The notes under the pieces were generated by a model. It made no database searches, was not told where the DNA came from, and worked only from the letters and a program-made list of their open reading frames with translations. A stretch of DNA of 64,000 bases. Source: an uncultured Bacilli bacterium (GTDB lineage: Bacteria > Bacillota_I > Bacilli_A > RF39 > UBA660). The stretch is taken from positions 59,187-123,186 of the forward strand of contig CAKOSH010000003.1 in NCBI GenBank assembly GCA_934102215.1. The letters are read 5' to 3'. The translations under genes were made by a program, and so were the position numbers. The stretch's first letter is position 1; each line of letters begins with the position of its first letter. This document shows, piece by piece, positions 655 to 31,627 of the stretch.

Positions 655-1125
655 CTAATTATTAAATATAAATTCAGGAAGTAAAGTTCCTATAAATAAA
701 AGTATTACTAGAACTATCCAGTTAGTTAAAATATTCATAACCTTACTAAATGTATCATTATTATAAACCATCTTGCCATATACATTTTGAAGATTATATT
801 CATTAAGTACTCCATTATCATCTTTAACATATATATTGTATTTGTCTACTTTTTCTACTTTTCCAAGCTTTGTTGTATTTGTATATTTATATACTACATA
901 ATCATTCACATCTATTGCTTTTGTTTCTTTAAGTATAATAATATTATTCTTTTTGATATCTGGTTCATAAATATCACTATCTACTTTAATATACGTATAG
1001 CCTAATACGGTTGGAAACATATCATTATAAACTTTTCTTTTTGTATACATTGATACCATTATTGCAGTGAATGCTACTAAATATATAATTATTAATATTC
1101 TAATTACATTTAATATATTTTTCAT
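655..1125 (-). CDS. Membrane protein with signal-peptidase I (SipW/ER-type) architecture but non-canonical catalytic positions
   Basis: N-terminal TM, about 100 aa extracytoplasmic region, C-terminal TM. Segments align by eye to S26 boxes: SDIYEP vs SGSMEP, NNIIILKE vs GDLILVK, KDDNG vs KGDNN; the nucleophile Ser position reads Ile. Overlaps the secA start by 4 nt (ATGA). Confidence 0.35.
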   Translation of the reverse strand: MKNILNVIRILIIIYLVAFTAIMVSMYTKRKVYNDMFPTVLGYTYIKVDSDIYEPDIKKNNIIILKETKAIDVNDYVVYKYTNTTKLGKVEKVDKYNIYVKDDNGVLNEYNLQNVYGKMVYNNDTFSKVMNILTNWIVLVILLFIGTLLPEFIFNN

Positions 1126-3668
1126 TTTAAATACATTCCGCCTTCCAATTTAGGATCTATTGTTTTACCAAATTTTAAATCAGGATTAGTCGCATATAAT
1201 AAGAAATCTGCTTGTATTTTCGGATTTAGATTTATAAATTCAGTATTAGCTGCATGTTCATATTCTTTAAATGGATCCATTCCTGATAATGTATAATATG
1301 ATGTTTGTTTCTTTATATCTTCTAATTTATCTAAATGGTCTATCCAATAAGAATCAACTACATTTAACATATTCTTTCTTACTTTTTCATTATTATCTTC
1401 ACGAGATATACTTCCTTTTATTTTTGAAAGTACAAGTGAATTTATTGATTCTCTTAAACTTTCTTTACTTGTAGTATCTAGTCCTTTAGTATCAATTATT
1501 CCATCTAAACTACTACTTATTTCATCAAGTGAACAATTATTTACTAAGTAATCAGTATATGATGGAACTATTCTATCAAATAATGTTTTAACTTCTTTTG
1601 TATCAAGAATCATGTTACGTTGATTATACATTAAATCTTTTTGAGTAGTCATTACTTTACCATATTTTTCACTTGTAATTCTTACTTTTTCTTCAAATCC
1701 TTCTTGTGCTTTTTGACATCTATCTACTAGTTTAATTATATTTTTATTAGTGATTTCTTTGTCTTTATCTTTAACAAGAGAAGATGCTGCATTAAATAGT
1801 TCTTCGCTTCCTCTTGTTTTAACTAAATCATCTTCAAGTGAACTATAATATTTTGTTTTACCTGGTTCTCCTTGTCTACTTGCTCTACCACGAAGTTGAT
1901 AATCAATTCTTTCATTATTATTTCTTGATGTACCAATTACATAAAGACCTCCTAGTTCACGAACTCCTTCGCCTAGTCTTATATTACTACCACGACCAGC
2001 CATATTAGTAGCAACAGTTACTTTACCTTTCATACCAGCATTTTCAATAATACCAGCTTCATTTTCATTGTTAACTGCATTTAATAATTGATGTCTTACT
2101 CCTGCTTCTTCAAGCATTTTACTTATGATAACACTTTCTTCTACACTTGTTGTACCAATTAATACAGGTTGTAATGTTTCATTTGCTTTTAATACTTCTT
2201 CAACAATTGCTTTATATTTAGCATTCTTAGTAAGATAAACGCTTCCCTTTAAATCTTTTCTTATATTAGGAAGTCTACTTGGTACTTCATATGTAGGTAA
2301 ATTATATATCTCATTAAATTCTTCAATATTACTAGTACCTGTCATACCACTTATACCACTTTTATATCTTGACATAAAGTCTGGATATGTACATGTTGCA
2401 GTAGTAACTGTTGGACTTTGTATTGCTACATGATAACTTTTACCTTTTGAAAGTAACTCTTCTTTTGCTTCAAGTGCTTCATGTATACCATGGCCTTTTC
2501 TTCTTCCTGGCATAAGTCTTCCTGTACTTTCATCTATTAAAACTATTTCTTTACGAGGTTTCTTTCCAGGTTTTACTGGAACACTACTAAGGACATAATG
2601 TTCACCATTCTTATAATAGAATTTAGCAAGAATACAATTTTCTACTGCAACAGTGAAATTCATAAGATTTTCTTGTTCTTCTAAACTAAGTTTAGATACA
2701 TCTTTATTACCATATATTTTTCTATATAACTTTTCGCTAAATATTACTCTTTGGCTATCTTGATATAACAAACAATCTTCTTTGAATCTTATTTCTTTTT
2801 TCTTATCAAGCTCATCTTGCGGTTCTATTTTACATGTAAGAGTATCAGCAAGTAACATTGCTTTTCGATACATTTCTCTATTAAGCTCATTTCTTCTTTT
2901 GAATTCTTCTTCTCCAATATCGCTCTTCTTTTGACCTGGATATCCTCCATTTATAATAAGAGGTACAGTCGCATCATCTAAAAGAATACTATCAACTTCA
3001 TCTATAATCGCATAGTTAAATGCTTTACCATAGTTTTTATCATGTTTATCTGGTAAATTAAATACTCTGTCTTCTTTTTTAGTAACAGTATTATCAAGTA
3101 AATAATCAAATGCTAAAGTTTTAGCAGTACCATAAACTATATCACTCTTATATATTTCACGTCTTTCATCACGAGTCATTTTATCATTACCATAAACTAC
3201 TCCTGAAGTAAGTCCTAATAAATCATAAACAGGTTTTGTTTCTTCAAGATCTCTTCCAATAAGATAATCATTTGCTGTAATAACATGCACACCTTTTCCA
3301 TCTAAGGCATTTAAATATGCTTCAATTATTTGAATGAATGTTTTGCCTTCACCAGTTTTAACTTCAGCAATCGCACCTTCCCTCATCGCAAGAGCAGCTT
3401 CAATCTGAACATCATAAAGGCTTACACCAATAGCCCTTTCAGTTGCAAGATAACATAAAGCAGTAGCCTCTATTAATTTATCATCAACAGTACTTTTACC
3501 ACTTCTTATCTCATTCATTAAACTGATGCTTCTTCTTTTAATTTCAGCAGATGTTATATTACTTTCTTTGTAAGAATTAACTCTATTTTTAACTTCTCTA
3601 ACAAGTTCTCTAATTCTTTTTTGATTATTTCTTGTATAACTACCAAATATCTTATCTGTTAAACTCAT
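1122..3668 (-). CDS. secA: Preprotein translocase ATPase SecA (848 aa, lacks C-terminal Cys-rich zinc-finger tail)
   Basis: DEAD-like motor motifs (KTGEGKT, DEVDSILLDD), full-length SecA similarity. C-terminus ends ...KLEGGMYLK without a CxCxSGKKYKxCHG motif. RBS AGGTGA before ATG. Confidence 0.9.
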   Translation of the reverse strand: MSLTDKIFGSYTRNNQKRIRELVREVKNRVNSYKESNITSAEIKRRSISLMNEIRSGKSTVDDKLIEATALCYLATERAIGVSLYDVQIEAALAMREGAIAEVKTGEGKTFIQIIEAYLNALDGKGVHVITANDYLIGRDLEETKPVYDLLGLTSGVVYGNDKMTRDERREIYKSDIVYGTAKTLAFDYLLDNTVTKKEDRVFNLPDKHDKNYGKAFNYAIIDEVDSILLDDATVPLIINGGYPGQKKSDIGEEEFKRRNELNREMYRKAMLLADTLTCKIEPQDELDKKKEIRFKEDCLLYQDSQRVIFSEKLYRKIYGNKDVSKLSLEEQENLMNFTVAVENCILAKFYYKNGEHYVLSSVPVKPGKKPRKEIVLIDESTGRLMPGRRKGHGIHEALEAKEELLSKGKSYHVAIQSPTVTTATCTYPDFMSRYKSGISGMTGTSNIEEFNEIYNLPTYEVPSRLPNIRKDLKGSVYLTKNAKYKAIVEEVLKANETLQPVLIGTTSVEESVIISKMLEEAGVRHQLLNAVNNENEAGIIENAGMKGKVTVATNMAGRGSNIRLGEGVRELGGLYVIGTSRNNNERIDYQLRGRASRQGEPGKTKYYSSLEDDLVKTRGSEELFNAASSLVKDKDKEITNKNIIKLVDRCQKAQEGFEEKVRITSEKYGKVMTTQKDLMYNQRNMILDTKEVKTLFDRIVPSYTDYLVNNCSLDEISSSLDGIIDTKGLDTTSKESLRESINSLVLSKIKGSISREDNNEKVRKNMLNVVDSYWIDHLDKLEDIKKQTSYYTLSGMDPFKEYEHAANTEFINLNPKIQADFLLYATNPDLKFGKTIDPKLEGGMYLK

Positions 3669-3779: not shown

Positions 3780-5420
3780 TCAATTAGTTTTTAAAGTAAA
3801 GTATCCAGGGCTACTTGTGCCTCCATCTATACGAGCATATTCTTTATCGATATGATTAGCATCATATTTGGTTCCTGCACCGCCTACTAGGTTTGTACTA
3901 TCTTCAAACATACTAGTACTTTTAGTGGCCTTATTAGTATTAAATTTATCACTAGCATATATTGTTTTTAAATTAGCTGAATTATAAAACATACCACTCA
4001 TATATATTACATTGCTTGTATCAAAATTACTTAAATCTAAAAATGAAACTTGACTTTCTCTAAACATGCTAGTCATATCAGTTACATTTTTTGTATCAAA
4101 ACTGCTTAAATTTATTGTTGTTGCCTTACTTTCCCAAAACATTCCATTCATGTTTGTTACATTGCTTGTATCAAAGCTCCTTAAATCTAGCGTTGTAGCT
4201 CTACTAGCATAAAACATCATTCTCATATTTATTACTTTACTTGTATCAAAATTACTTAAATCTATTAATGTTACTTGACTACTTCCAAACATAAAATTCA
4301 TACTAGTTACATTACTGGTGTTAAAATTGTTTAAATCTAAAGATGAAACTTGGCTACCATAAAACATATAATCCATAGAGGTTACATTGCTAGTATCAAA
4401 ATTGCTTAAATTTAAAGATGCAGCCTGACTCTCATAAAACATTAATTCCATAGTGACTACATTGCTCGTATCAAAACTGCCTAAATCTAATATTGTCGCT
4501 TGGCTTTCTCTAAACATACCACTCATATTTGTTACATTGCTAGTATCAAAACTGCCTAAATCTAATATTGTCGCTTGGCTTTCCCAAAACATACCACTCA
4601 TATTTGTTACATTGCTAGTATCAAAACTGCTTAAATCTATTGTTGCAGCCCGACTTTCTTCAAACATATAACTCATAGACACAATAGGCATATTATTTAT
4701 ATATGTACATAACTTGCTTGTTACTGCATTAGTGCTTACTTCGTTAGTTAATTGAACTCCCCAACCAGTAGTCGCAATATTTTGCCAACCTGACGCACTG
4801 CCTTCTTGCATATATCTATAAGTGTATTGCCCATTTACATACTCTGCACCCTGTGTAAGATCGCCATCATATGTACAATATACAGGATTAATTGATGATT
4901 CATTTAAGCCAAGTTTTCCTTTAAATGCTTTATTTTTGTTATAATTTTGAAGCTTACCTGTATCAATAAATGTTATTTTGATTGTGTATTCTTGTGTATA
5001 ACCGGGTTTTATTGGAACATTTGTTAAAATTTTTCCTTCTTTAACTACTTTTTGCGATACTGAACTACATGTTCCATCTTCTGTGTTACTTGAATTCAAA
5101 TTTTTACATGTTCCTTCAATAACAAGTTCATTATTCGTAATTTCATTTACAAGTTCTTGCCACATAAGATTATAAATTACTTGTTTTGTTCCAGTGTTCT
5201 TTACTGATATTGTTTTAGTTATTGAGTCCCCTGGCATTGCTCCATCAAGTGATACTTCATTATCATCAGTAAATACTAATTCTAAATCACCTGTTGTTAT
5301 CTTGTTATATTTAGCAGTATCGTTTCCAATTATATTAAGCGAAAAAAATGCTAGTGAAACTCCAATTACTGCGAATAGTATTGATATCACTAGCAATATA
5401 TACATTTTCTTATCTTTCAT
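3780..5420 (-). CDS. Secreted protein: TasA/CalY(camelysin)-like N-terminal domain with SipW-cognate-type signal region fused to about 9 DUF285 (Mycoplasma-type, BspA-like) 26-aa repeats
   Basis: N-terminus LAFFSLNIIGNDTAKYNKITTGDLELVFTD..PGDSITKTISVKNTGT resembles TasA/CalY (AFFSD..AGTLDL..PGD..N.GSL). C-terminal half has repeats L(D/N)LSxFDTSNVTNMSGMFxESQ. ORF track starts at GTG (5429); ATG at 5418-5420 with AAGGAAG RBS preferred. Confidence 0.8.
   Translation of the reverse strand: MKDKKMYILLVISILFAVIGVSLAFFSLNIIGNDTAKYNKITTGDLELVFTDDNEVSLDGAMPGDSITKTISVKNTGTKQVIYNLMWQELVNEITNNELVIEGTCKNLNSSNTEDGTCSSVSQKVVKEGKILTNVPIKPGYTQEYTIKITFIDTGKLQNYNKNKAFKGKLGLNESSINPVYCTYDGDLTQGAEYVNGQYTYRYMQEGSASGWQNIATTGWGVQLTNEVSTNAVTSKLCTYINNMPIVSMSYMFEESRAATIDLSSFDTSNVTNMSGMFWESQATILDLGSFDTSNVTNMSGMFRESQATILDLGSFDTSNVVTMELMFYESQAASLNLSNFDTSNVTSMDYMFYGSQVSSLDLNNFNTSNVTSMNFMFGSSQVTLIDLSNFDTSKVINMRMMFYASRATTLDLRSFDTSNVTNMNGMFWESKATTINLSSFDTKNVTDMTSMFRESQVSFLDLSNFDTSNVIYMSGMFYNSANLKTIYASDKFNTNKATKSTSMFEDSTNLVGGAGTKYDANHIDKEYARIDGGTSSPGYFTLKTN
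3930..4640 (-). repeat. Array of about nine 78-bp (26-codon) tandem repeats encoding DUF285 units; two adjacent units nearly identical at DNA level
   Basis: Near-identical 78-bp units around 4489-4566 and 4567-4644. The spurious plus-strand ORF 4453..4671 shows the same periodicity (LLVSKLPKSNIVAWLS x3). Confidence 0.8.
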
Positions 5421-5442
5421 AATGATCACACTTCCTTATCTT

Positions 5443-5482
5443 ATGATCATTATAGCAAATATTACCCCCCCCGCAAGCAAAC
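5443..5482 (-). promoter_or_regulatory. Conserved promoter cassette with G8 homopolymer in spacer (minus strand: TTGCTTGC-GGGGGGGG-TAATATT-TGCTATAAT)
   Basis: Extended -10 TGCTATAAT at 5449-5457, poly-C (plus strand) 5465-5472, TTGCTT -35-like box immediately upstream. Same cassette found upstream of two paralogous genes. Confidence 0.6.
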
Positions 5483-5499
5483 ATTTGTTCTTGTTTACC

Positions 5500-6438
5500 T
5501 TAATCTATTCTTCTACCAACAACAACCATTAGTTTTCCTTGGTGTTTTCCAAATAGGCATGTTTGAAGAACTATTATTTTATCATCCTGATTTAATTCTA
5601 CATCTGTCTTATAAATACTTCTATTTTTTAATCTATTGAAATGTTTTAACCAATCACTATCTTTTTTATATTTTAATTTCATATGTTCTTCTGTACCCAC
5701 TTTATCAGCAAGAACTATACTAAATATTTCATATTTTAAAGTCTCATTGTCAATCTTTAATTCAATGATTCTATGTTCATCAAAATATTCTTTCTTTAAA
5801 TAACCCTCTAATGTTTTAAATGGTGGATTATATTTTTTATTACTATGATTATGTCCGTATATATTAATCTGTTTACTATCTTTACTAACTCTATAATCCA
5901 TAAATGTACTTCCAATAGCACTTCTCTTTTTACTTAATGAATATTTTAAATAATATTGGTTATCTTTAGTTTAAACTACTGGAGTATATATTTCATCATC
6001 AATACTTAAAATTCCAATAACATCATTATTATTGTATTTTTTCTTTAAATCATTTATTTCTTCTTCTACTGTTTTCTTTGGAACTTCTATATCTGAAGCA
6101 GGTTTAACTAATTTACTTTCATTAATTTCTATTATTGTTTTTTCTTCTTCTTTTCTCTTTTGAATTAACAATACAAAACTAACTACCACTATTATAGATA
6201 AAATAACTATTAATATATTAAATATAAGATTTCTTTTGTTATCTTTTTTAATATCTTTTGAATTAGTTTTCTTTGTTGATTTATTATTTACTTTACTACT
6301 AGAAACTCTCTTTGCTGAACTTGCTTTTGTTTTGTTATTTGTTATCTTCTTTGCTGAAGATACTTTTGCTTTATTACTTGTAGTTTTCCTTAATGTAGTT
6401 ACTTTCTTAGTAGTATTATTCTTTTTATTATTTGTCAA
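5500..6438 (-). pseudogene. srtB: Sortase B (class B sortase) with an in-frame TAA stop at 5971-5973 replacing the Gln of the conserved PVVQGKDNEYY motif
   Basis: ORFs 5971..6438 and 5500..5901 are in the same frame separated only by TAA. Read-through gives ...IYTPVV*TKDNQYYLKYSL..GSTFMDYR..IYGHNH...LQTC...RR, matching SrtB signature blocks (DYPVVQGKDNEYYL, GSIFMDYR, TLxTC, Arg). Confidence 0.75.
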
Positions 6439-28491: not shown

Positions 28492-29451
28492 CTAATTTAA
28501 AGCATCAACTAATTCATCTTTTTTCATTGTTGAATATCCAGAAACGCCTTTTTCTTTAGCGATTTTCTTTAATTCAGCAACGCTCATTGATGAATAATCA
28601 ACTTTTTCTTCTTTTTTAGCTTCTTTTTTTTCTTCTTTTTTAGTATTCTTTTCTACTTTCTTAGGTTCTTCTTCACTAAAATCATCAAATTCAACTACTT
28701 TAGTTTCAACTTTGATTTCTTTTGATGGTTTTACTGCATTTTCATCTTCAGTAACATAGTCTACTAATGGAAGTCCGTTTGCTTCACAAACAGCATTAGC
28801 TAAAACACCTAAAACTACTTTAACACTTCTAACAGCGTCATCATTAGCTGGAATTGGGAAATCAACATCATCTGGATCACAGTTAGTATCTACAATTCCA
28901 AATACTGGAATATGTAATTTACGAGCTTCATGTATAGCATTAGCTTCTACTCTTGGATCAACAACGATGATTGCTTTTGGTAAACGATCCATTTCACGAA
29001 CTCCACCTAGAAGTTTATTTAATCTGTCATATTCTTTTTGAATTTTTGCAACTTCTTTTTTAGGTAGTAATTCGAATTTACCATCCTTTTCCATTTTTTC
29101 GATTTCTACAAGTCTCTTAATTCTTTCTTTAATAGTTCTAAAGTTAGTAAGAGTACCCCCTAGCCATCTTTCTGTTACATAAAAACTATTACATCTAGTT
29201 GCTTCTTCGATACTAGCTTCTTTAGCTTGCTTTTTAGTACCTACGAATAGAACCTTACCACCGTTTTCGCATGCTTTAAGAAGTTCAGCGTAAGCTTCTT
29301 CTATTTTTTCAACAGTTTTTTGTAAATCAATAATATGAATGTCATCTCTTGTAGTAAAAATGTATTCCTTCATTTTAGGATTCCATCTTTTTGCTTGATG
29401 TCCAAAGTGAACACCTGCTTCTAATAAATAACTTTTTGCAATTACTGCCAT
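28492..29451 (-). CDS. rpsB: 30S ribosomal protein S2 with about 70-aa Lys/Glu-rich C-terminal extension ending in a Rho_N/SAP-like motif
   Basis: S2 core (HFGHQ..RWNPKM); tail [12 protein letters not shown]...[30 protein letters not shown]. Confidence 0.9.
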
Positions 29452-29668
29452 TTTTCATTTCTCCTTTCGTTAATTCTTCTGCCTATCTTTAAATTAATAT
29501 TCACTTATATTAAGCACTAGAATATTAAATCAATAAGCATGTCTTTTTTCTTAAAGCGAGTTTATTTTAGCACATTTTAGATCAAAAAAAAAGAGTTTTG
29601 TGAAAATTCTATGGTGCTAATAGTGGAAAGTTAACTCTTTTTAAATGTGGTTGGTTGAATTGTGTGCG

Positions 29669-31003
29669 TTAGCCGATGCGGAAAGCTGGCGCAACGCCAC
29701 ATGTAGAATAAGCATCAATATTAGAACCGCCACCATTATTATTCACTTTAAAGAAAGATTTTTCACTGATAGACACAGCCGAACGAAGGCACCATGATGA
29801 AGTACTAGTTCTATTATTTTTTATCGCTCCATTAAAATTAGTTGTAGTTACGCCTAAATTTTTATAGTAATCTAATTGTTTTGTTATATCTCTTGCTTTA
29901 TCATATTTAAATCCAAATTTCTCTGGTTCTGTAACACTAACCAATGGTGAAACTGTTAACTTAGAAATTGATTCATTCATACTATTGGAACTTGATACTA
30001 CATCTGCCCTTACTTCTGCTGTGCTTAATAAATATAATTTATCTGTTGATGTAAAGTTTGTTGTGTCTTCGCTTCCAGGTCCTGATACTACTGTTGTATC
30101 TATTATTGCATTCTTTATTTCACTTGGTATTACATTATATATATCATTATTTACAAATGTTCTCATTGTTGTTGCTGGCCAGCCATCCTTATTCCAACCA
30201 TAATTATATTGTGTTCCATTATATTCTCCACTTGGATTCATATTATGTGTTGTTATGATATTTGCAAATTCTAGTACAAATCCACATGCTGTTTGTGAAA
30301 AACCTGTTGTACTACATTCACTTGGTGTTGAAGTATTTGCTACGCGAAGTGTATGTGTTCCATATGTTCCAAGATTTACTTCTTTTGTACTTCCAACTTT
30401 ATACTCACTTCCATACCCAGCTTTTACATTTGCTATAATTGTTGACCAACTATCAGTTGCAAAATCAGGAGCCTTATATTCTTCAATGCCAAGTACACCA
30501 TTGAATTGTTTACCTTGATTATAATTTTGGTCTGCATTTATTTCTTTAAATAATATTGTAAATGTATATTTATGAGTAATTCCTGATTCTATTGATATTT
30601 TCTTTGCGATTGTCATATCACTAATTGGTGATTGTGATATAGATTCACATGTTCCTTCAACTGTACCTGATGCATTTAATCTTTGACATGTCGCGCTTAA
30701 AACAAGTTCATCATTTGTAATTCCATTTGTTAGTGATTGCCAAATAACATTGTAATATGCATCTAATGTACCATTATTTTTTACTGATACTTCTTTTGTT
30801 GTTGACCATCCTGGTTTTATATATTGTGCATTTATTGCTGGTCCATCAGTATATGTAAGTTTTAGTGTTCCAGCTTCCACTATTACATCTTTTGCATTAT
30901 CATTTCCTTTTACAGCAGTACTAAAGTACGCATAAGAAAGACCTGTTGTTAAAAGCAATAACAATACAAGAAACGTTCCAATTAAAATTTTGTTATCTTT
31001 CAT
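29669..31003 (-). CDS. Secreted protein: TasA/CalY-like N-terminal domain plus Cys/Trp-rich C-terminal domain ending ...GVAPAFRIG (paralog of 10456..11682)
   Basis: LSYAYFSTAVKGNDNAKDVIVEAGTLKLTYTD..KPGWSTTKEVSVKNNGTLD N-domain; C-terminal blocks GFSQTACGFVLEFANIITTHNMN, GWPATTMRTFVNNDIYN, KLYLLSTAEV, QLDYYKNLGVTT shared with 10456..11682. Confidence 0.75.
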   Translation of the reverse strand: MKDNKILIGTFLVLLLLLTTGLSYAYFSTAVKGNDNAKDVIVEAGTLKLTYTDGPAINAQYIKPGWSTTKEVSVKNNGTLDAYYNVIWQSLTNGITNDELVLSATCQRLNASGTVEGTCESISQSPISDMTIAKKISIESGITHKYTFTILFKEINADQNYNQGKQFNGVLGIEEYKAPDFATDSWSTIIANVKAGYGSEYKVGSTKEVNLGTYGTHTLRVANTSTPSECSTTGFSQTACGFVLEFANIITTHNMNPSGEYNGTQYNYGWNKDGWPATTMRTFVNNDIYNVIPSEIKNAIIDTTVVSGPGSEDTTNFTSTDKLYLLSTAEVRADVVSSSNSMNESISKLTVSPLVSVTEPEKFGFKYDKARDITKQLDYYKNLGVTTTNFNGAIKNNRTSTSSWCLRSAVSISEKSFFKVNNNGGGSNIDAYSTCGVAPAFRIG

Positions 31004-31024
31004 AATTTATCTACCCTACTTTCA

Positions 31025-31064
31025 TTAGTAAGTATAGCATAAATTACCCCCCCGCAAGCGAACA
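31025..31064 (-). promoter_or_regulatory. Conserved promoter cassette with G7 tract (TCGCTTGC-GGGGGGG-TAATTTA-TGCTATACT)
   Basis: Extended -10 TGCTATACT at 31031-31039, poly-C 31047-31053 (plus strand); third copy of the cassette. Confidence 0.6.
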
Positions 31065-31312
31065 TTTATTCTTGTTTAAGAAGCAAAATGTAGATTGACG
31101 ATTTATTTGATCCAACTTTTGACGAATTATTTGGACCAATTCAAATATTTTTAACTTTTTGAAATTTTCTTAAAATTTAATTTTGCATATTAAAACATGG
31201 TTGATAATTGAATTTTTGCCTAGAGAATAATTAAATTTTCACTATGAAAAACTACCTCAAAATTGAATTTTACCTATTTGCATTGCATTTTTATATATGC
31301 TATTCTACATTC

Positions 31313-31550
31313 GAAGTGCCTGAGGCTAGGTGTCACCAATATTAATTTTCTGTATCCAGAGATCTAATGGAGGTGATGTTATATGAGTAAGAAAGATTTC
31401 TTAATAAGTTTTTTACTTGTTATTATATTCGTATTACTTTTTATAATAATTTCTTTAATTTTCGCAAATTAAAAAAATCACCTAACTCACTTTGTAGTTA
31501 GGTAAACATATTACATGTGATACCTAGCCTACAGGGGTCAGGTGCTTCAC
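31313..31550 (+). ncRNA. Structured mRNA: 5' element (31313-31337) and 3' element (31517-31550) form a roughly 24-bp long-range duplex around the small ORF; internal hairpin 31479-31501
   Basis: 5' GAAGUGCCUGA pairs with 3' UCAGGUGCUUC (11 bp, two G-U); 5' GGCUAGGUGUCAC pairs with 3' GUGAUACCUAGCC (13 bp). Candidate promoter TTGCAT-N17-TATTCT at about 31279-31306. Confidence 0.5.
31383..31472 (+). CDS. 29-aa hydrophobic peptide MSKKDFLISFLLVIIFVLLFIIISLIFAN (candidate type I toxin)
   Basis: Strong RBS GGAGGTG 7 nt before ATG; single TM helix with short charged N-terminus; flanked by complementary GC-rich 5' and 3' UTR elements. Confidence 0.5.
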   Translation: MSKKDFLISFLLVIIFVLLFIIISLIFAN

Positions 31551-31589
31551 TAATAATAGTTTATCATATTTAAATATACATTGTAAATA

Positions 31590-31622
31590 ATTTATCAAAA
31601 GAAAAAGCACTATTTCTAGTGC
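31590..31622 (-). terminator. Rho-independent terminator after the 31628..32035 gene (GCACTA-GAAA-TAGTGC plus TTTTTCTTTT)
   Basis: 6-bp stem, 4-nt loop, U-tract on minus strand. Confidence 0.55.
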
Positions 31623-31627
31623 AATAT

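Follow-up and report, generated by a model that had tools for sequence, protein, structure and literature searches.

The three TasA-like genes that lie within the 64,000-nucleotide stretch of DNA analysed here (the window), which derives from an uncultured Bacilli bacterium, are each preceded by a run of seven or eight guanines embedded in a conserved promoter cassette. From the sequence of this cassette and its comparison across related loci we propose, with our confidence evenly balanced for and against, that the G run serves as a spacer, tunable by slippage, within a promoter of the extended -10 type, which would make each copy a contingency locus. The three genes are the only ones of their type in the window (tblastn with the N-terminal domain as query), the tract being found upstream of all of them, and the surroundings of the tracts at the three sites are near-identical, with a distance of about 30-45 nt from cassette to gene. 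The elements of the three copies are as follows.

Site 1, 5479..5490, minus strand: operator-like palindrome GAACAAATGTTT (family consensus GAAC-wwwT-GTTY), adjoining GCTTGC on its upstream side
Site 1, 5480-5473, minus strand: TTGCTTGC, the sequence read directly before the G8 run
Site 1, 5473..5478, minus strand: GCTTGC, conserved in the family
Site 1, 5476-5471, minus strand: -35-like box TTGCGG, which shares its TTGC with GCTTGC and its GG with the start of the tract
Site 1, 5465..5472, minus strand: G8 tract (C8 on the plus strand), within the putative promoter spacer, G8 in nine independent samples
Site 1, 5449..5464, minus strand: TAATATT (5464-5458) and the very probable extended -10 TGCTATAAT (TGC 5457-5455, TATAAT 5454-5449)
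Site 1, 3780..5420, minus strand: gene of 546 aa, with signal peptide, TasA-like jelly-roll N-domain and DUF285/PARCEL repeats
Site 2, 11738..11749, minus strand: palindrome GAGCATTTGTTT, two mismatches to GAAC-N4-GTTC
Site 2, 11708..11737, minus strand: core of GCTTGC, G8 (11731-11724), TAATATA and TGCTATAAT, starting 5 nt past the glyS stop codon
Site 2, 10456..11682, minus strand: gene of 408 aa, with TasA-like N-domain and DUF6273
Site 3, 31060..31071, minus strand: palindrome GAATAAATGTTC
Site 3, 31031..31059, minus strand: core of GCTTGC, G7 (31053-31047), TAATTTA and TGCTATACT
Site 3, 29669..31003, minus strand: gene of 444 aa, with TasA-like N-domain and DUF6273

At site 1 the G8 tract in front of the TasA-like/DUF285 gene reads letter for letter as it had been described in a first-pass annotation of this DNA, and is followed by a leader of 28 nt with AAGGAAG and then by the ATG at 5420. 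The same region (5420-5452, minus strand) holds a perfect 9-bp inverted repeat, TAATGATCA-N15-TGATCATTA, which extends from the -10 to the start codon, carries the ribosome-binding site between its arms and is partly conserved in site 1-type leaders. Some 25-65 nt upstream of the site 3 cassette (31095-31137, minus strand) lie the direct repeats CCAAATAATTCGTCAA and TCAAATAAATCGTCAA, 24 nt apart, which may be a further regulator site; resembling sequence is found upstream of related cassettes in L043, L047 and L061 (L numbers denote related loci).

Long G or C runs are rare in this DNA. The window has a GC content of 25.9%, close to the 26% given earlier, and contains eight G/C runs of at least 5, among which those of at least 7 are the three cassette tracts only, so that the confinement of such runs to site 1 and the two paralogous promoters, as previously claimed, is borne out by the count. 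An i.i.d. model predicts 0.12 runs of at least 7 and 0.019 runs of at least 8 in the window, which places the runs of at least 7 about 25-fold above chance, to be read with the qualification that the three sites are paralogous copies and hence not three independent events. In about 0.6 Mb of redundant low-GC DNA from short-read assemblies, 24 of the 28 distinct G/C runs of at least 6 fall inside the cassette, the other four belonging to three loci of unrelated organisms that had matched by chance.

Searches by protein similarity and by DNA pattern turned up numerous copies of the cassette, which lie in human-gut metagenome contigs, in the complete 1.53-Mb metagenome-assembled genome (MAG) CP091739.1 and in one 'Bacilli bacterium' MAG; the contigs come from human-gut samples, those of the Hadza cohort among them, and metagenome OIZL01 alone holds 12 copies. 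Its consensus consists of an A-rich stretch, the palindrome (a/c)GAAC-wwwT-GTT(C/T), the hexamer GCTTGC, zero to three extra bases, the G run, and finally TAAT-w-T-w-TGCTATA(A/C)T. When TasA-like genes were gathered by protein similarity alone, the cassette was present in 27 of 34 distinct upstream regions, and the other seven had ordinary AT-rich promoters. Behind the cassette stand TasA-like, DUF285 (PARCEL) and DUF6273 surface-protein genes, including DUF285 and DUF6273 genes with a non-TasA N-terminus (L046 4232-4270, L042, L033, L030, L035, L045 and L051), in which TATAAT is placed exactly 6 nt before the ATG without a Shine-Dalgarno sequence; judged from this layout, their mRNAs are probably leaderless. 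In every case TAAT follows the 3' end of the G run without a gap, 10 nt from the -10, the extra bases (A, AC, GC or TGA) occurring on the 5' side of the run only. The run is kept at 7-9 G across diverged species and different gene types in a genome of 26% GC; a plain spacer could do without a homopolymer, and this one must be upheld by selection.

The genes behind the cassette form a multigene family, with which the cassette is exclusively associated and whose products are, as supported by sequence and a structural model, secreted or surface proteins. The three window products (546, 408 and 444 aa) have in common a signal peptide as well as an N-domain, beta-rich and some 180 aa long, which matches the camelysin/TasA family PF12389 over residues 12-85 or thereabouts only, with 36.1 bits at site 2, 38.2 at site 3 and 21.7 at site 1 against a cut-off of 22.5, and NCBIfam TIGR04090 with 17-32 bits against a cut-off of 60. 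An AF2 model (pLDDT 79) has the TasA fibre 8aur as its top PDB match, at a modest TM of 0.42 and an E value of 4e-5, with the archaeal TasA-like filaments 7pnb and 7ueg also among the matches. The C-termini consist of DUF285/PARCEL repeats or DUF6273. A common N-terminal signal peptide and beta-rich jelly-roll domain link these proteins to the SipW-dependent fibre proteins TasA, CalY and BsaA, from which they differ by their large fused C-terminal DUF285 or DUF6273 domains; for site 1, the earlier description of a large repeat-bearing surface protein agrees with the signal peptide, TasA-like domain and DUF285/PARCEL repeats found there.

The neighbourhood of these genes offers several further observations. 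Directly downstream of the site 1 gene (655-3668, minus strand) lies a SecA paralog of 848 aa that scores below both the SecA and the SecA2 cut-offs, together with a 156-aa membrane ORF (655-1125) of faint SipW resemblance (18.8 bits against a cut-off of 190, E 9.5e-4), and the two may constitute a dedicated export set for the family. Upstream of site 1 (5500-6438, minus strand) is a class B sortase gene with one in-frame TAA at about 5971-5973, where sortases have Gln (..PVV*TKDNQYYL..). All strain contigs examined show this gene divided into ORFs of 155 and 133 aa, and the split sortase is either a pseudogene that has become fixed or an instance of recoding. Housekeeping genes of the chromosome occupy the remainder of the window, namely dnaE, glyS, sepF, divIVA, rpsB, tsf, topA, lon and a PBP gene, and ribosomal protein S2 (28492-29451, minus strand) bears a C-terminal Rho_N/SAP-like extension (PF07498, E 2.9e-9). 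Among the cassette genes themselves, single in-frame stops with an intact downstream frame occur in L013 (10576-10578), L012 (10799-10801) and L091 (1798), as a TAG at a Gln codon (L013-L016), a TAA at a Ser/Thr codon (L012) and a change of GGA to TGA (L091), and nonsense inactivation seems frequent in the family.

The hexamer TATAAT with its preceding TGC, which had been described as a perfect extended -10, has gained support: TGCTATAAT is very probably a real extended -10, both because the cassette is conserved before many genes and because the leaderless TATAAT-N6-ATG alleles, which lack a Shine-Dalgarno sequence, need TATAAT as their -10, a layout that would place the transcription start about 7 nt after it. 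The upstream half of the promoter requires a different assignment. The box TTGCTT, proposed as the -35, is not conserved, 21 of 28 cassettes having TTCGCTTGC instead, and the associated spacing of 20 nt at G8 and 17 nt at G5 is sound as arithmetic, the questionable point being the choice of the box from which it was counted. What is conserved is TTGCGG, in which the TTGC that ends GCTTGC is completed by two G from the start of the run, and which lies 16 nt from TATAAT at G8; for this reason a scheme in which G8 means 20 nt and 'off' and G5 means 'on' is unlikely. From the conserved sequence we infer that TTGCGG acts as the -35. A more distant relative carries GCTTGACGGG... at the homologous place, that is, the textbook promoter TTGACG-17-TATAAT, which counts in favour of this -35 placement and of a tunable spacer alike. 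The G run would then occupy about -30 to -23, between TTGCGG and TGCTATAAT.

A generic promoter scan missed the cassette and is uninformative in AT-rich DNA, its hits numbering 63 against 70 in shuffled sequence. The only Rfam match in the window is an L21 leader elsewhere than the tracts (RF00559, 46212-46288, minus strand, 45 bits), no tRNA genes were found in the window, and folding gave small local hairpins only, with no terminator after the run. Readings of the G-rich region as a sigma-54, sigma-B or sporulation-sigma promoter were set aside upon a by-eye check, the consensus sequences being a misfit.

We measured the spacer from TTGCnn to TATAAT in 34 family alleles from short-read assemblies. 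It is 15 nt long in 3 alleles, 16 nt in 15 (the mode), 17 nt in 5, 18 nt in 8 and 19 nt in 3, and a pure G8 with a 16-nt spacer accounts for 14 of the 34. Where the run is broken by substitution, as in GGGGAGTGG, GGGTAGTGG (twice), ACGGGTGGG and GCGGGTGGGG, the spacer is 17 or 18 nt in all five cases, which fits a promoter dependent on spacing whose interrupted tracts are locked near the optimum, and is at odds with G8 as an 'off' state at 20 nt.

On the reading that we favour, each member of the surface-protein family would carry its own copy of a sigma-A-type promoter cassette, composed in 5' to 3' order of the operator-like palindrome GAAC-N4-GTTY, a weak -35 (TTGCGG), a spacer made up of the rest of the G run and TAATwTw, and TGCTATAAT, with transcription predicted to start about 7 nt past the extended -10. 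Slipped-strand gain or loss of a single G would set the spacer to 15 nt at G7, 16 nt at G8 and 17 nt at G9, and the same indel would shift the operator relative to RNA polymerase, such that each gene's transcription could be tuned or switched in a manner that is heritable, reversible and separate from that of the other genes of the family. Because the -10 is a perfect extended -10, a rheostat would be likelier than a clean on/off switch. We infer, furthermore, that tract length affects expression and that its mutation rate is high enough to matter. The excess of G runs and their length polymorphism at orthologous loci count for a tunable spacer; against it count the strong predominance of G8 and its invariance at three loci, the lesser dependence of a perfect extended -10 on the spacing of the -35, and the length of the tract itself, G8 being at the low end of the tract lengths known to be hypermutable.

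The first-pass annotation had put forward the run as a phase-variation candidate and suggested that tract lengths be compared among related isolates, and the outcome of a comparison between strains is divided. Of the distinct alleles in the short-read data, about 20 have G8, about 5 have G7 and 3 have G9, so that G8 is strongly modal. Among the five orthologous loci compared, two differ by one base in length and three are invariant. The site 1 locus is G8 in nine samples and a fourth locus is G8 in six; at the site 2 locus the run reads G8 in five samples, with L071 lacking the T after the run and being equally readable as G7, while other strains have AC-G8 or ACGGGTGGG there together with a different gene allele. 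At the site 3 locus, on the other hand, conspecific strains whose flanks match closely, and whose alignment there holds no further indel, show G7 (the window), G7, G8 and G9, and the L013/L034 locus shows G8 in one strain and G9 in the other. The candidate is supported by the differences between strains at site 3 and at L013/L034 and weakened by the invariant G8 at the remaining three loci. Over 9 kb, L013 and L034 share 99.2% identity, and the only two indels between them are the G8/G9 difference and a T7/T6 difference 87 nt away; small indels are also found in other nearby non-coding DNA, and the tract is therefore not demonstrably less stable than its background. A/T runs of at least 6 differ in 1 of 346 observations, as against, by our own tally, roughly 3 of 19 for the G tracts; the A/T runs make a weak control, being mostly coding and having required exact flanks. 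These comparisons would agree with a tract that is prone to slippage and that selection keeps at about 8 G. At L013 14421-15575 there is in addition an IS605-family OrfB/TnpB gene that is absent from L034, and in L091, a strain of the G7 lineage, the nonsense mutation mentioned above falls in the site 3 gene, a single anecdote that hints at weak use of this gene.

Two apparent sources of variation were discarded. The lengths in CP091739.1 (G4, G6, G6, G7, G8 and G9; L020-L026) were dropped because the family genes there have as many as four frameshifts apiece, as is characteristic of long-read assemblies whose homopolymer errors were left uncorrected, and they provide a practical warning that homopolymer lengths in long-read MAGs can pass for phase variation. 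Contig ends at the cassette were likewise rejected as a sign of heterogeneity, a break being expected from a k=31 graph at a repeat shared by paralogs.

The main rival to this reading is that the run is a fixed, sequence-specific promoter or operator element, of which about 8 G are kept by purifying selection. It could, for example, belong with GCTTGC and the palindrome to the site of a regulator, or form a stiff stretch of GC on which promoter kinetics depend; where strains differ by one base, as they rarely do, the change would be an ordinary indel without a switching role. We consider this somewhat unlikely. It draws on the dominance of G8 across species and paralogs and on its invariance at three loci in 20 samples, on the constant 3' boundary at TAAT with extra bases only on the 5' side, by which the run and not the total distance looks conserved, and on the interrupted alleles that are still G-rich (GGGGAGTGG, GCGGGTGGGG); that a promoter homopolymer need not switch is shown by the T-tract of Mycoplasma agalactiae vpma, which has no role in variation (PMC2268961). 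It is opposed by the two loci at which length differs between near-identical strains, by the convergence of the interrupted alleles on 17-18 nt, which points to spacing rather than to G identity, and by some family members in the same genomes that have ordinary AT-rich promoters free of any tract, for which reason the run is dispensable for expression; nor is any regulator or sigma factor known that recognises a G8 run. The copies in OIZL01 count in turn against the tunable-spacer reading, as 11 of the 12 have G8 and the sharing of one state by nearly all copies is a misfit with classical antigenic variation, in which one gene is on and the rest are off.

A run with no function of its own, copied passively with the genes by duplication and gene conversion, is very improbable in our view. 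The family is indeed highly recombinogenic, with mosaic alleles whose junctions lie inside the cassette (L075, L077), and contigs often break at the cassette, which is a repeat; but the run has been retained against a strong AT mutational bias where the flanks are at 70-75% identity, it is kept before genes with unrelated leaders and N-termini, and drift would have produced a much wider spread of lengths.

The palindrome raises the question of regulation. In 422 kb of related DNA, nine of the ten distinct perfect copies of GAAC-N4-GTTC lie within the cassette, at a predicted position of about -48 to -37 next to the -35-like box, and the distance from palindrome to -10 differs by up to 4 nt between alleles, the tract region being 7-11 nt. 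The LexA box is GAACN4GTTC in Bacillus subtilis and GAACnnnnGTT(T/C) in clostridia (PMC4234289), and the cassette consensus (a/c)GAAC-wwwT-GTT(C/T)-G equals this Firmicute box, known also as the Cheo box, as a matter of sequence resemblance, here outside any SOS gene context. The palindrome could accordingly be read as a LexA (SOS) operator that would render the family DNA-damage inducible, with the G run only spacing the operator from the -10, a reading that can coexist with either the tunable spacer or the fixed element and that we think distinctly unlikely. Beyond the match to the consensus, it is favoured by the concentration of perfect copies in cassettes and by their location beside the -35-like box. 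Weighing against it, the one-mismatch motif is unenriched in the window (10 found, 9.5 expected); recA, lexA and uvr genes are absent from the window and the related loci searched; an SOS regulon of a dozen surface-protein genes would be unusual; and regulators of the SinR type or specific to the family are equally possible. No mutS or mutL gene lies in the window or these loci either.

The cassette also appears to act as a recombination junction between paralogs, as judged from mosaic alleles. Junctions within the core (GCTTGC, G run, TAAT) are seen in L075, L077 and L078 compared with window sites 1 and 2, in L026 compared with L038/L058 and in L024 compared with L033, the examples including an upstream flank of site 2 fused to a leader of the site 1 type (L075, L077) and one upstream flank found with different gene types. 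Cassette and gene together are furthermore a presence/absence polymorphism within the species (window 10270-11755 and 29452-31627; L062, L065, L068, L076, L079): in empty strains glyS directly precedes sepF, or a 135-aa gene is followed by rpsB, and in occupied strains alleles of 383 to 771 aa stand at the same place. Comparison of the empty and the occupied glyS-sepF site revealed no target-site duplication, and a look-up of GlyRS variants (P0124) returned empty sites only. One may combine these strands into a three-in-one diversification module of uncultured gut Bacilli, comprising a LexA-type operator, a hypermutable G run and a core that serves as crossover point, in which the operator would couple expression of the adhesin family to DNA damage, the G run would set the level of each gene stochastically, and adhesin cassettes would be exchanged at GCTTGC/G run/TAAT between loci and strains. 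We regard this combination as highly doubtful; if true, the TasA-like fibre adhesins of human commensals would be subject to a contingency system coupled to stress.

Should the G runs switch, as the tunable-spacer reading holds, a dozen TasA-like/PARCEL surface proteins would be varied in combination by a gut lineage that is widespread, uncultured and small in genome, with bearing on colonisation, on immune and phage evasion and on strain tracking, and the cassette provides an exact anchor for counting tract lengths in existing metagenome reads. Our literature search found no description of such a cassette and family system, nor a paper linking TasA with DUF285. The kind of system is well known; what is new here is the poly-G cassette with an operator-like palindrome, the TasA-like/PARCEL/DUF6273 family behind it and its occurrence in an uncultured lineage of gut Bacilli. 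In the human gut microbiota, the phase variation known so far is mostly that of invertible promoters of Bacteroidales, and to our knowledge repeat-based switches in commensal Firmicutes/Bacilli have hardly been charted. A comparison that had been drawn with vsa as an example of slipped-strand variation does not stand, as vsa varies by DNA inversion. In Neisseria meningitidis, porA (poly-G between -35 and -10) and opc (poly-C) show graded expression over about three adjacent tract lengths; they are alike in having a G/C homopolymer in the spacer, and differ in being single genes of a Gram-negative pathogen, whereas the present cassette is common to a dozen paralogs.

The mycoplasmas offer a parallel in which spacer indels switch the promoters of vlp in Mycoplasma hyorhinis (poly-A), maa2 in M. 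arthritidis and vmm in M. mycoides on and off (PMC2268961), and in M. capricolum contingency tracts, either homopolymers or dinucleotides, flank PARCEL lipoprotein genes in Vmc-type modules (PMC2996958). Common to these loci and to ours are a family of surface genes, a conserved promoter belonging to each gene, a simple repeat between the -35 and the -10, a small AT-rich genome and the DUF285/PARCEL repeat. The repeat, however, is poly-A or TA in the mycoplasmas and a short poly-G (7-9) here, where switching is a prediction; lipoprotein signals there are replaced by TasA-like signal and N-domains here; the present cassette includes an operator-like palindrome; and the host is a walled gut bacterium, probably spore-forming, with MurT, SpoVA, SepF and DivIVA genes nearby. 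In Bordetella pertussis, the fim2 and fim3 promoters have a poly-C tract between the site of a BvgA dimer and the -10, in which the gain or loss of one C abolishes expression and whose length is mixed within cultures (PMC10172299). Their layout of palindrome, homopolymer and -10 is the same as that of our cassette, and the genes controlled are paralogous genes for fibre subunits; the tracts there are of 11-16 C and visibly heterogeneous, in contrast to the 7-9 G known here from consensus assemblies, and the upstream factor there is BvgA, whereas here we have a candidate operator only, whose spacing from the -10 varies by up to 4 nt.
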